In this document: positions 17,784 to 19,879 of the stretch, in pieces | Layout: each line of letters starts with the position of its first letter | Numbering within the stretch: position 1 is the stretch's first letter | Assembly: GCA_016186325.1 (NCBI GenBank) | Contig: JACPLW010000004.1 | Coordinates: 446 to 64,445, forward strand | DNA: 64,000 bases | From: Parcubacteria group bacterium | Lineage (GTDB): Bacteria > Patescibacteriota > Minisyncoccia > UBA10092 | Direction of reading: 5' to 3' | The notes under the pieces: model-generated | Database searches by the model: none | Seen by the model: the letters and a program-made list of their open reading frames with translations, nothing else | What the model was told of the DNA's origin: nothing | Translations under genes and position numbers: made by a program

Positions 17784-18500
17784 TTAATAACTGTCTCTGT
17801 TAAATTTCGGAAGCATTAAGTACGGCGACCAGGTTTCAATCATCTTTTTTGTATCGTCGGTTGTCTGATATTGGCCTCCGCCCGAAGAGTAGCTTTCATC
17901 AAGCGGATCAACTTGATAGAAAGGAATTTGGGCAACCCTCATTCCCACTACTAAAACTATAGACGTATCTTTCAGGTGGTTGCTCATTTCCATGGTCCAT
18001 CTATTGCAGAAGCCAACGTCGCCCCAGCCGGCGCACTTACATACGGTAATACCAATTCTCCCCATAGAGCTCCTGGCTCTCATTTCCGTTGTTACGCAAT
18101 TTCTTCCGCCTATAAATTCTTGTGTATGAGCCAGAATACATTCGCCCGGGCCTAAAATGATAACCTTATCTTCCGGTTTGATATTTTTTAACGGTCCGTT
18201 TTCTGCTATCCAGTCGGCTGCCACTGTCGCTTTTTGCGGGTTACCACAGTATCTTTGAATATGTTCTTGGTCAAATGGATTTAAAACGCGCCGATGTAAC
18301 GCTCGGAATGGTTGTTCCTGGAAATAATTTTCTCCCAGTCTAACGTCATAACTGGTGGTTCGCAAGTCATTAATGTTAAATGGGTCAATAAAAATATTTC
18401 CTTCCTTAATATGTTCCAGAATTATCGGTTTGCTTAATAAAGAACGCAGAGGGGCATTTCGGTTATCCAATTTTTTCTCCTTCTTTCGTTTTTTTCTCAA
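17784..18500 (-). CDS. dcd: dCTP deaminase (dUTPase-fold, Dcd family) with basic N-terminal extension
   Basis: IILEHIKEGNIFIDPF, YDVRLG, ILGPGECILAHTQEFI, RSSMGRIGI, AGWGDVGFCNRWTMEMSNH. TTG start per track; overlaps the upstream kinase-like ORF by 38 nt across an A7 tract. Confidence 0.8.
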   Translation of the reverse strand: MRKKRKKEKKLDNRNAPLRSLLSKPIILEHIKEGNIFIDPFNINDLRTTSYDVRLGENYFQEQPFRALHRRVLNPFDQEHIQRYCGNPQKATVAADWIAENGPLKNIKPEDKVIILGPGECILAHTQEFIGGRNCVTTEMRARSSMGRIGITVCKCAGWGDVGFCNRWTMEMSNHLKDTSIVLVVGMRVAQIPFYQVDPLDESYSSGGGQYQTTDDTKKMIETWSPYLMLPKFNRDSY

Positions 18501-19191
18501 AAATGTTGAGAATTTCTTGCGCGATTGTCTCGATCATAACCTGTTCATCAATGTTGGTGGTGTCCATAAGGCGAAGCTGTTTGTATTCCGGAGATAGGAT
18601 CTCGAAAGCTGAACGATAACGAGATACCAATGTTTCGATAGTTTTGGGATTAGTAGTGTCGCCCAATTTTTGGCTCAAGGCGATTCTTAATTCCCGCTTC
18701 ATAGCCACTTCCGGATCGCATATCAAAAAGTAGGCGGCATCAATTTTATTTATCCAAAAACGTGATAAGAAAAACTTTTGAATTAAATCTCTCTCTTCTA
18801 AGCTTAGTTTTCCTTTTTCCAGCCAATACTGCATCCAGCAAATAGCATCAAAAGCACATCTTTCAAAAATGATAATATCGTATAGGTGCCCCATACTTTC
18901 ATCTATGAGAATGTTCAAGGCATAAAGGCCTGTTCTTATATTATAAAGAGGCGTTGAGCGAGGAATGTGGCGAATTACTTCCGCACCTTCTTGAGGTTTT
19001 AAAACGCGAAAGCCGTGGTGTCGAAAGAAGCTATCAAGTTCTTTTATGATAGTTGTTTTACCGCTTGATGGCGGGCCGGTAAGTTCAACAAAAAATGGCC
19101 TTGGAAGAAAATTTTCATCGTAACGGACGCTGCTTTTAAGATATGCAAGAATTTGTCGTGCCTGTTGTTCAAAAACATTTTCGCGATTCAT
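18463..19191 (-). CDS. P-loop nucleoside/nucleotide kinase-like protein (deoxynucleoside-kinase-like)
   Basis: Walker A LTGPPSSGKTT; downstream IIIFERCAFD resembles the dNK ERS motif. 242 aa. Stop lies inside the dcd N-terminus. Confidence 0.55.
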   Translation of the reverse strand: MNRENVFEQQARQILAYLKSSVRYDENFLPRPFFVELTGPPSSGKTTIIKELDSFFRHHGFRVLKPQEGAEVIRHIPRSTPLYNIRTGLYALNILIDESMGHLYDIIIFERCAFDAICWMQYWLEKGKLSLEERDLIQKFFLSRFWINKIDAAYFLICDPEVAMKRELRIALSQKLGDTTNPKTIETLVSRYRSAFEILSPEYKQLRLMDTTNIDEQVMIETIAQEILNIFEKKTKEGEKIG

Positions 19192-19267
19192 CCGGGTCTC
19201 CGCTTGTAATTTTTAAAGTGCTGAATTATTGTTATTATGAAAATAATCTATAACTCAATTTAAAGCA

Positions 19268-19879
19268 ATGAAACCTGTGGATAACAAAAAAATCATCGGA
19301 CTTGATTTGGACGGCGTTATCATTAACCACGCGCCTTTGAAAATGAAACTGGCTAAGAAGTTCGGATTCAAGCTCAAGCCGGAAGAAACTCCGTCCGAAA
19401 TAATTAAATCTATTGTTGAAAGACCGGTTTTAGATAAATTGTTACAAATCTTATATCACGATCCTAGGTTTTTTAAAACTACGTCTCTGATGCCTGGCGT
19501 GAAATTGGGACTTTTGAAGTTACAAAAAAATAACTTGCCCTTTGTTTTGATATCAAGACGCCGTGAGCCGATATCAGCCATTGAAGCATTAAAACATCAT
19601 GGCTTGTGGCCGAAATTTTTTAATGAAAAAAATGCTTTTTTTGTGGTGGAACCGGAAGATAAAAATATAAAAGCGCGCGAAATGGGGGTGACGCATTACG
19701 CGGACGATGATACGGGTATATTAGAAAAATTGGTTGATGTAAAAAACCGTTTTCTTTTTGACAATCTAGGCGCTTTTTCCGCCCAAGGCGAGACCTCGCC
19801 ACTTCGGGGCGGGGAAAACACCATCGGCTATACCCGCGTAAAATCGTGGAAGGAATTAATTGAACATTTTCTTAAATAA
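19268..19879 (+). CDS. HAD-superfamily 5'(3')-deoxyribonucleotidase-like protein
   Basis: Motif I GLDLDGVI, NT5C-like layout (LMPGVKLGLLKL..FVLISRR..., ..HYADDDTGILEKL). Divergent from the kinase gene with a 76-bp shared intergenic region. Confidence 0.55.
   Translation: MKPVDNKKIIGLDLDGVIINHAPLKMKLAKKFGFKLKPEETPSEIIKSIVERPVLDKLLQILYHDPRFFKTTSLMPGVKLGLLKLQKNNLPFVLISRRREPISAIEALKHHGLWPKFFNEKNAFFVVEPEDKNIKAREMGVTHYADDDTGILEKLVDVKNRFLFDNLGAFSAQGETSPLRGGENTIGYTRVKSWKELIEHFLK

Follow-up and report, generated by a model that had tools for sequence, protein, structure and literature searches.

A kinase–dcd operon with a divergent NT5C-like phosphatase gene in a Parcubacteria genome: probably a housekeeping pyrimidine-deoxynucleotide cluster

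In animal substrate cycles, deoxynucleoside kinases (dNKs) are opposed by 5'(3')-deoxyribonucleotidases (cdN, mdN; NT5C). Deamination of dCTP is carried out by more than one kind of enzyme. The dUTPase-fold class is zinc-independent (PMC12088426), whereas the defensive dCTP deaminase of Tal et al. is a single chain of 576 aa whose cytosine deaminase domain is zinc-dependent; its position beside defence systems led to its discovery, and both its kinase and its deaminase domain are required (bioRxiv 10.1101/2021.04.26.441389). AvcD of the AvcID system has been described as a related deoxycytidylate deaminase (PMC10511110).

Here we analyse a chromosomal locus of a small-genome, Azambacteria-like member of the Parcubacteria, viewed within a 64-kb stretch of DNA (hereafter the window). 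It holds genes for a P-loop kinase, a dUTPase-fold dCTP deaminase (Dcd) and an NT5C-like HAD phosphatase (Table 1). An earlier note on this DNA had offered two readings, a Tal-type defensive kinase–dCTP deaminase split or slipping at a homopolymer and, as a fallback, an ordinary nucleoside-salvage cluster of a reduced genome. On the basis of the gene boundaries, folds, retained catalytic motifs, synteny and absent fusions computed here, the fallback is the one favoured by the evidence. With a probability of about 0.72, the locus comprises three separate, intact genes that form a housekeeping pyrimidine-deoxynucleotide cluster, in which the kinase–dcd operon formed recently.

Table 1. Features of the kinase–dcd–phosphatase locus, in window coordinates.
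Feature	Position	Strand	Remarks
dUTPase-fold dCTP deaminase (Dcd, possibly bifunctional DCD-DUT)	17784..18470	-	228 aa; TTG start at 18470
P-loop kinase, thymidylate-kinase / deoxynucleoside-kinase fold	18463..19191	-	242 aa; LTGPPSSGKTT and IIFERCAFD
NT5C-like HAD phosphatase, resembling 5'(3')-deoxyribonucleotidases	19268..19879	+	203 aa
Divergent intergenic region between kinase and NT5C-like gene	19192..19267		76 bp
Start/stop overlap TTGGATAA (Dcd TTG start, kinase TAA stop)	18463..18470	-	8 nt
GGAG Shine-Dalgarno-like sequence	18477..18480	-	six bases upstream of the Dcd start at 18470
A7 run in the K/E-rich C-terminal tail of the kinase	18489..18495	-	codes E-K-K-T; T7 on the + strand
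GC hairpin resembling a terminator, between dcd and the PAP2 gene convergent with it	17741..17766	+	9-pair stem; T-run on the + strand

Gene boundaries and the kinase–dcd junction

The P-loop ORF, the divergent HAD ORF and the Dcd ORF with its YDVRLG, PGECILAHTQEFI, RSSMGRIGI and GWGDVGF motifs were all recovered as the earlier note had described them, and the A7 run lies where it had been placed. The 38-nt overlap claimed between the kinase and dcd did not hold. It results when Dcd is taken to begin at the first TTG (18500), whereas the second in-frame TTG, at 18470, is better supported: it aligns exactly with the ATG or GTG starts at four orthologous loci, gene callers give a 228-aa Dcd with an 8-nt overlap in three orthologues (L059–L061), and Dcd homologues are mostly 226–230 aa long. 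At the position of the window GGAG, the orthologues carry GGAGG, GAGG or AGGA. TTG 18470 is most likely the true Dcd start, as judged from these alignments, and with this start the overlap shrinks to 8 nt and the A7 run falls upstream of it, outside the overlap. The overlap, of the form NTGRATAA, is kept in L059 (GTG) and in L060, L061 and L057 (ATG).

The kinase and dcd are probably co-transcribed, and dcd is probably translationally coupled to the kinase via the stop/start overlap preceded by GGAG. The hairpin downstream of dcd would mark the end of this unit, and we infer a terminator role for it in the minus-strand operon. A promoter scan of the 76-bp divergent spacer returned no promoter-like match above chance.

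Folds and predicted roles of the three proteins

The fold assignments of the earlier note (dNK-like kinase, Dcd, NT5C-like HAD) stand, with the addition that the kinase is just as close to thymidylate kinases (TMPKs). The window kinase possesses the fold, P-loop and E/D-R-x motif of dNK/TMPK-fold kinases and falls, narrowly, below every Pfam and NCBIfam cut-off. Thymidylate_kin (PF02223) scores 14.8 bits against a gathering score of 27, and dNK (PF01712) is unreported for it in the Pfam search; a close family representative (P0241) passes PF01712 with 36 bits. Kinase homologues are ~240 aa long.

Dcd matches the Pfam DCD family (PF22769) with an E-value of 5.8e-32 and 111.3 bits, above the cut-off of 27, and misses the TIGR02274 equivalog by 3 bits (89.7 against 92.8). 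Its closest solved structure is the bifunctional DCD-DUT of M. jannaschii (1ogh, E 1.8e-11), with the RSSxGR and GWxDxGF motifs and the catalytic Glu column kept. In the alignment, RSSMGRI stands opposite RSSLGRV with the catalytic Ser and Arg retained, and the Glu in TMEMS shares a column with the Glu of 1ogh and the Gln of the variant chain 3gf0. The best matches in the structural set are bifunctional enzymes, a sequence rank that does not settle mono- versus bifunctionality.

The HAD protein scores 25.1 bits against Pfam NT5C (PF06941), whose gathering score is 24.8, over profile positions 2–90 of 180, i.e., the N-terminal half; this match being marginal, we treat the protein as NT5C-like. 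HAD motifs I–IV are conserved, namely DxDGV (D13xD15GV), ISRR (S96), K (K132/K135) and DD (D146-D147). Its AF2 model has a pLDDT of 89, and the top Foldseek match is 3bwv, a deoxyribonucleotidase-like protein, with mouse cdN (2jao) also matched; other HAD C1-cap phosphatases are nearly equal to the deoxyribonucleotidases in structural score.

These assignments suggest putative substrates for all three proteins and a substrate-cycle logic. The kinase would add a phosphate to a salvaged (deoxy)nucleoside or dNMP, and the divergent NT5C-like phosphatase would take the 5'-phosphate off again, so that the two could together set pool sizes, comparable to the animal dNK/5'(3')-deoxyribonucleotidase substrate cycle. 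Dcd would convert dCTP to dUTP or dUMP, supplying thymidylate synthesis.

Synteny across relatives and competing readings

Synteny was surveyed in 53 species-representative genomes carrying the kinase, 49 of which could be assessed for an NT5C-like partner. In 47 of these 49 loci the kinase and the NT5C-like gene are linked: directly divergent with a gap of <300 bp in 34, separated by one intervening gene in 11 and in tandem in 2. The partner is absent in 2 of the 53 loci and not assessable in 4. In some lineages a third gene, encoding ~232 aa with a DGIHR motif, is added to the pair; one instance lies at L010:1612-2313.

Dcd behaves differently. None of the 53 species-representative genomes has an intact Dcd adjoining the kinase, and in 52 of them Dcd is absent beside it. 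Dcd follows the kinase only in the closest clade of the window, in L059–L061, plus a deletion remnant in L057, where dcd has decayed and the kinase and HAD genes are intact. Elsewhere it stands alone beside core genes (HisRS, Pth, TopA, RelA, GreA, Mur-ligase). Separate, syntenic genes flanked by core genes, which the earlier note had named as the pattern that would speak against a defence gene, are indeed what related genomes contain. On the favoured reading, the kinase–phosphatase pair is the old and conserved unit, and dcd took its place directly behind the kinase in the immediate clade of the window.

A more tentative extension of the favoured reading concerns the pair itself. The Parcubacteria-wide kinase and NT5C-like pair could be a hitherto undescribed kinase/phosphohydrolase module with which bacteria lacking de novo synthesis adjust their deoxynucleotide pools, or the kinase could be a non-orthologous substitute for a canonical one, e.g., Tmk, with the dcd operon of the window as one lineage's extension. 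No specific account of a kinase/nucleotidase pair in Parcubacteria came up in a literature search.

Alternatively, the kinase and the HAD protein may form a conserved Parcubacteria module acting on a non-deoxynucleotide substrate, e.g., nicotinamide riboside/NMN or another phosphorylated metabolite, with dcd a chance neighbour in one clade that shares no pathway with them. The best Pfam family of the kinase is AAA_28, a broad P-loop family without a defined substrate, which leaves room for such a substrate. Distant kinase relatives of 430–475 aa end in a Nudix domain (18 of 58 by Pfam) or a CYTH domain, both with a wide range of nucleotide-like substrates, and the near-universal absence of dcd beside the kinase, together with its decay in L057, points the same way. 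Against this, the kinase family profile matches Drosophila dNK (E 0.002) and no NadR chain up to E 10, and NadR ranks below TMPK and dNK in both fold searches; a NadR-type ribosylnicotinamide kinase, being outranked in this manner, survives only within this alternative. Moreover, deoxyribonucleotidases provide both the top structural match of the HAD protein and its sole Pfam match at cut-off, and the overlapping, Shine-Dalgarno-preceded kinase–dcd junction is shared by at least four genomes, pointing to selection for co-expression. We regard a non-deoxynucleotide module as improbable.

An anti-phage system that depletes dCTP on infection, analogous to that of Tal et al. but built from a separate kinase and dUTPase-fold Dcd, is very unlikely. 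The two genes are adjacent and apparently co-transcribed, the defensive enzyme likewise needs a kinase and a deaminase domain, and a Fic-domain ORF ~3 kb away (14173..14718) matches the PADLOC candidate PDC-S23 (E 1.6e-62). However, the defensive deaminase domain is zinc-dependent and differs from Dcd in fold and chemistry. Dcd belongs to PF22769 and is not a zinc-dependent cytosine/cytidine deaminase with Cys ligands, and because the Tal-type enzyme uses that different fold, a kinase beside a "dCTP deaminase" here is not a Tal-type defence gene. Nor is there a single polypeptide: in the window the two ORFs are read in different frames and have a stop or start of their own, and all orthologues are separate.

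PADLOC gave little for the locus itself. Dcd matched no family in a search that did not single out the model for the dCTP deaminase system, and among the three locus proteins the only match was a weak, P-loop-level one of the kinase to mad8 (E 0.011). The Nudix-fused kinase relatives gave weak matches only, to the candidate PDC-S07 and from their Nudix half, and nine of ten neighbours had no match, the Fic ORF being the exception. The kinase is very highly conserved, at ~65% identity between lineages of candidate-phylum rank, and its synteny is stable over the 53 species, which is the opposite of the patchy distribution and fast evolution of defence genes. The locus sits not beside known defence systems but in conserved core-type synteny: the neighbours (TspO, GSDH, PAP2, DUF167, DUF1573, an SfLAP-like protein and a P-type ATPase) mostly recur in L059, and GSDH, DUF1573 and SfLAP recur in L003. 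The same window also contains UvrA, UvrB and an SMC-like gene, and Dcd orthologues elsewhere are found among translation and replication genes. No homologue of the kinase was found in phage records or IMG/VR viral contigs; Dcd relatives (41–50%) occur on six viral contigs, with no kinase or HAD gene near them. An AvcI-like or other structured RNA was also considered and rejected, Rfam having returned just two tRNAs, both far from the locus.

The reading of kinase and dcd as a single gene, divided through an indel that sequencing or assembly introduced into the A7 run, or joined in part of the products by transcriptional or translational slippage, starts from a correct piece of arithmetic, in that in-silico deletion of one A gives a single uninterrupted 468-aa ORF as the earlier note had predicted. 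Homopolymers are prone to error, and in the window as well as in L060, L061 and L057 no stop interrupts the Dcd frame over the 21 codons before the start. Nevertheless, in each of the independent assemblies L059, L060, L061 and L057 the kinase and dcd occupy different frames, with stop and start at identical positions, and Dcd has its own Shine-Dalgarno sequence and start. The run itself varies, being A7 in the window, A4 in both L059 and L061, and A8 in both L060 and L057. In L059 the Dcd frame is interrupted by a TAG two codons ahead of the Dcd start. Runs of seven or more A or T number 72 in the 64-kb window (40.6% GC), ~one per 900 bp, and five further ones lie within the span of the locus examined here.

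Fused forms, which a programmed frameshift would be expected to show in some lineages alongside a conserved slippery run and open frame, are likewise missing. A Dcd domain occurs in 0 of 276 kinase relatives and a kinase domain in 0 of 120 Dcd relatives, and searches covering 5.8 and 1.8 billion proteins returned no fused kinase–Dcd homologue (1.84 billion representatives in the profile search). The 430–475-aa kinase relatives had been candidates for such fusions and were rejected once their C-termini proved to be Nudix or CYTH rather than Dcd. Judged from the sequences, the A7 run reflects ordinary lysine codons near the end of the kinase gene and does not represent a conserved slippery site, and a split or slipping gene is the least credible of the readings. 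With a different deaminase fold, no fusions and an unconserved A run, the Tal-type interpretation of the earlier note fails on each count.

Comparison with known systems

The main value of these results lies in a correction: a kinase adjoining a "dCTP deaminase" does not make a Tal-type defence gene, and when genes overlap next to a homopolymer in a small, AT-rich genome, the overlap is usually an ordinary operon junction. The kinase/NT5C-like pair is among the more strongly conserved uncharacterised gene pairs of Parcubacteria and is a reasonable target for learning how reduced bacteria manage their dNTP pools.

Like the enzyme of Tal et al., the locus associates a nucleotide-kinase-type P-loop module with a dCTP-deaminating enzyme. 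Unlike it, the locus consists of two genes rather than one polypeptide, employs a zinc-independent dUTPase-fold Dcd and is surrounded by conserved core synteny. Compared with the housekeeping Dcd and DCD-DUT enzymes (E. coli; M. jannaschii, M. tuberculosis; PF22769, TIGR02274), the window Dcd has the same fold, RSSxGR, GWxDxGF and catalytic Glu, and it shares with the M. jannaschii DCD-DUT an insertion in the same N-terminal region. It is longer, however, with ~228 aa against 177–204 aa in the solved enzymes, and uniquely in the clade of the window it sits in an overlapping operon behind a kinase.

With the dNKs (Dm-dNK, dCK/dGK, AbmG) and thymidylate kinases, the window kinase has in common the P-loop, the E/D-R-x after strand 3, a LID-like Arg-rich segment and the overall fold, yet it is only 13–20% identical to any solved member, and its family has invariant motifs of its own (PRPFF, PQEGAE, RHIxRxTPxYN and WMxYW). 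The closest parallel for the pair is the animal dNK/NT5C cycle, in which a dNK-fold kinase is likewise matched with an NT5C-type phosphatase. The likeness is one of logic only, the bacterial pair being known from its genes and its HAD member matching NT5C marginally, and here the two partners are encoded as a conserved divergent gene pair.

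Architecture of the kinase–dcd junction

The ORFs, their motifs, the A7 run and the 76-bp divergent spacing described in the earlier note are all present (see table), yet the 38-nt overlap it assigned to the kinase and the dUTPase-fold dCTP deaminase (Dcd), and the weight it placed on the A-run, do not stand. An overlap of that length presupposes the first in-frame TTG (18500) as the Dcd start, whereas a second TTG is better supported. In an alignment of the window with four orthologous loci, the start column reads TTG/GTG/ATG/ATG/ATG, and in every junction the start codon overlaps the kinase stop as NTGRATAA. 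In three of these four orthologues the called Dcd gene encodes 228 aa and overlaps the kinase by 8 nt, and most Dcd homologues fall within 226–230 aa. Given these aligned starts, gene calls and lengths, together with the upstream GGAG, we conclude that Dcd most likely begins at the second TTG, overlapping the kinase by 8 nt with the A7 run upstream of the overlap. The junction is of a standard operon type, compatible with translational coupling, which may operate here.

Features of the locus and of related loci
Feature	Position	Strand	Description
Kinase	18463..19191	-	242 aa; P-loop LTGPPSSGKTT, motif IIFERCAFD
Dcd	17784..18470	-	predicted start TTG 18470; motifs YDVRLG, PGECILAHTQEFI, RSSMGRIGI, GWGDVGF
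HAD-type (NT5C-like) ORF	19268..19879	+	203 aa; 76 bp from kinase start
A7 run	18489..18495	-	in K/E-rich C-terminal tail of kinase
GGAG	18477..18480	-	6-nt spacer to Dcd TTG
Fic-domain ORF	14173..14718	+	181 aa; Pfam Fic, E 4e-12
92-aa ORF (ORF list)	16827..17105	+	hydrophobic N-terminus; repetitive His/Tyr/Pro/Arg-rich tail HYHSYYRYYSYSHYHYHPHPRYHHHRR
dcd remnant	L057:6722-6933		behind kinase; start and ~9 codons, then residues ~166-228, out of frame
VMDGIHR gene	L010:1612-2313	+	
VMDGIHR gene	L022:5280-5975	+	

The A7 run itself is incidental, not special. In the window (GC 40.6%), homopolymers of A or T reach 7 nt or more 72 times, about once per 900 bp, and five besides this one lie within the kinase–Dcd–HAD span. 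Among the junction orthologues the run is A4 in L059 and L061 and A8 in L060 and L057; these differences are substitutions that leave the kinase frame and stop unchanged.

Protein families and the conserved unit

The fold assignments of the earlier note stand, with one reservation: the kinase may act on nucleosides or on dNMPs. The kinase narrowly misses the Pfam threshold for AAA_28 and falls well short of that for TMPK; its family profile matches Drosophila dNK (E 0.002), FDRC aligning with the dNK ERS motif, and among close representatives of the family one passes Pfam dNK. The HAD protein clears the NT5C gathering threshold by 0.3 bits across half of the profile only and carries four of four HAD motifs; its model (pLDDT 89) is closest to 3bwv, a deoxyribonucleotidase-like protein, with mouse cytosolic 5'(3')-deoxyribonucleotidase as a further match. 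A short low-confidence insertion near its C-terminus (SAQGETSPLRGGENTI, residues ~173–184) is shared with a few close relatives and missing from most of the family. Dcd matches Pfam DCD (PF22769, E 5.8e-32), scores 89.7 bits against TIGR02274 (cut-off 92.8) and has the bifunctional DCD-DUT of M. jannaschii as its closest solved relative (E 1.8e-11). Aligned to solved chains, it keeps RSSxGR, GWxDxGF and the catalytic Glu, at a position where 1ogh has Glu and the variant chain 3gf0 has Gln.

The kinase is identical (100%) to HYW79_01475 of a Parcubacteria-group MAG and has 360 close homologues in Azambacteria, Giovannonibacteria, Yanofskybacteria, Harrisonbacteria and similar MAGs; those among the matches listed are 227–274 aa long and strikingly conserved (mean column identity 74%). 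Scanning one genome per GTDB species yielded 53 loci, in which all three genes were placed by tblastn. The NT5C-like gene is directly divergent from the kinase (gap <300 bp) in 34 loci, divergent with one intervening gene in 11 and immediately downstream on the same strand in two; it is missing within the flank in two and not assessable at a contig end in four. An intact Dcd adjoins the kinase in 0/53. Only the closest relatives of the window, L059, L060 and L061 (kinase 71–78% identical), have dcd directly behind the kinase; in L057 (76%) a deletion remnant lies there, with the kinase and NT5C-like genes intact. Dcd orthologues at 56–76% identity are otherwise solitary, surrounded by HisRS, Pth, topoisomerase I, RelA/SpoT, GreA and Mur-ligase genes. 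More distant Dcd proteins of the long subtype (~228 aa), 41–50% identical to that of the window, occur on six IMG/VR contigs of viral or giant-virus MAG origin (L065–L070; GC 27% to 56%, two labelled GVMAG), with neither the kinase nor the HAD nearby. Kinase and phosphatase are therefore the conserved unit, and dcd is a recent arrival in one clade.

Fifteen related loci also carry a conserved ~232-aa gene (motif VMDGIHR) beside the kinase, mostly directly upstream, co-directional and between it and the NT5C-like gene (L010 and L022, and also L007, L012, L013, L019, L020, L023, L025, L032, L037 and L044); it lies downstream in L033 and L043 and on the opposite strand in L056. Pfam offers no more than a faint resemblance to a ParB CE domain (E 0.089), and the window lacks the gene.

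Taken together, the locus most likely serves housekeeping pyrimidine-deoxynucleotide metabolism in a salvage-dependent bacterium, in line with the fallback of the earlier note, an ordinary nucleoside-salvage cluster. The kinase would phosphorylate a (deoxy)nucleoside or dNMP, the NT5C-like phosphatase would counteract it, and Dcd would convert dCTP to dUTP or dUMP, feeding thymidylate synthesis. A shared pathway is suggested because the overlapping, SD-preceded junction recurs in at least four genomes and because the HAD protein is deoxyribonucleotidase-like. The main live alternative, which we consider unlikely, has the kinase/HAD pair working on a different substrate, with dcd beside it by chance. 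The enzymes are of familiar kinds and the operon is unremarkable; of modest interest beyond that is only the kinase/NT5C-like pair, which is highly conserved in Parcubacteria and uncharacterised.

Neighbourhood, fusions and defensive dCTP deaminases

A defence role is very improbable. The single defence-flavoured neighbour is the Fic ORF, whose match (E 1.6e-62) is to the C-terminal half of PDC-S23, an untested phage-defence candidate in PADLOC; the syntenic Azambacteria locus L059 has a Fic gene too. The remaining neighbours encode TspO, a glucose/sorbosone dehydrogenase-like protein (GSDH), PAP2, DUF167, DUF1573, an SfLAP-like membrane protein and a P-type ATPase; L059 shares most of this set, and L003 shares GSDH, DUF1573 and SfLAP. 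Genes for UvrA, UvrB and an SMC-like ATPase are found farther along the window. Among PADLOC profiles Dcd has no match, and the kinase a weak P-loop match alone (mad8, E 0.011).

Least probable of all is a split or slipping kinase–Dcd fusion: removing one A in silico does yield a single 468-aa frame, bearing out the arithmetic of the earlier note, yet in L059 (Dcd 95% identical) a TAG stands in the Dcd frame two codons 5' of the start, so that no frameshift could yield a fusion there, and no search found a protein joining the two families. Searching 1.84 billion representative proteins with the kinase profile returned 904 relatives, and about one third of the best 150 are 400–480 aa long; the C-terminal halves of long relatives are Nudix (18/58 by Pfam; their consensus contains a Nudix box) or CYTH (3/58), and none is Dcd. 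Distant relatives of ~430–475 aa (E 1e-30 to 1e-38) include proteins ending in a Nudix (P0290, P0303, P0312, P0321) or CYTH (P0306) domain, and P0241 (480 aa) carries the kinase twice in tandem. Sequences related to the Nudix half occur in phages of Staphylococcus, Listeria and Bacillus and on Bacillus plasmids; none were found there for the kinase half.

The headline of a defensive kinase-deaminase is unsupported. The defensive dCTP deaminase of Tal et al. (bioRxiv 10.1101/2021.04.26.441389) has an N-terminal kinase domain, and its family was chosen for its position beside defence systems; the window locus, by comparison, consists of two genes rather than a single polypeptide and lies outside a defence neighbourhood. 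The C370A and C401A mutations abolish defence in that system (bioRxiv 10.1101/2021.04.26.441389). The deaminase domains differ in fold and chemistry as well: the defensive one is zinc-dependent, whereas the dUTPase-fold class to which the window Dcd belongs is zinc-independent (PMC12088426).
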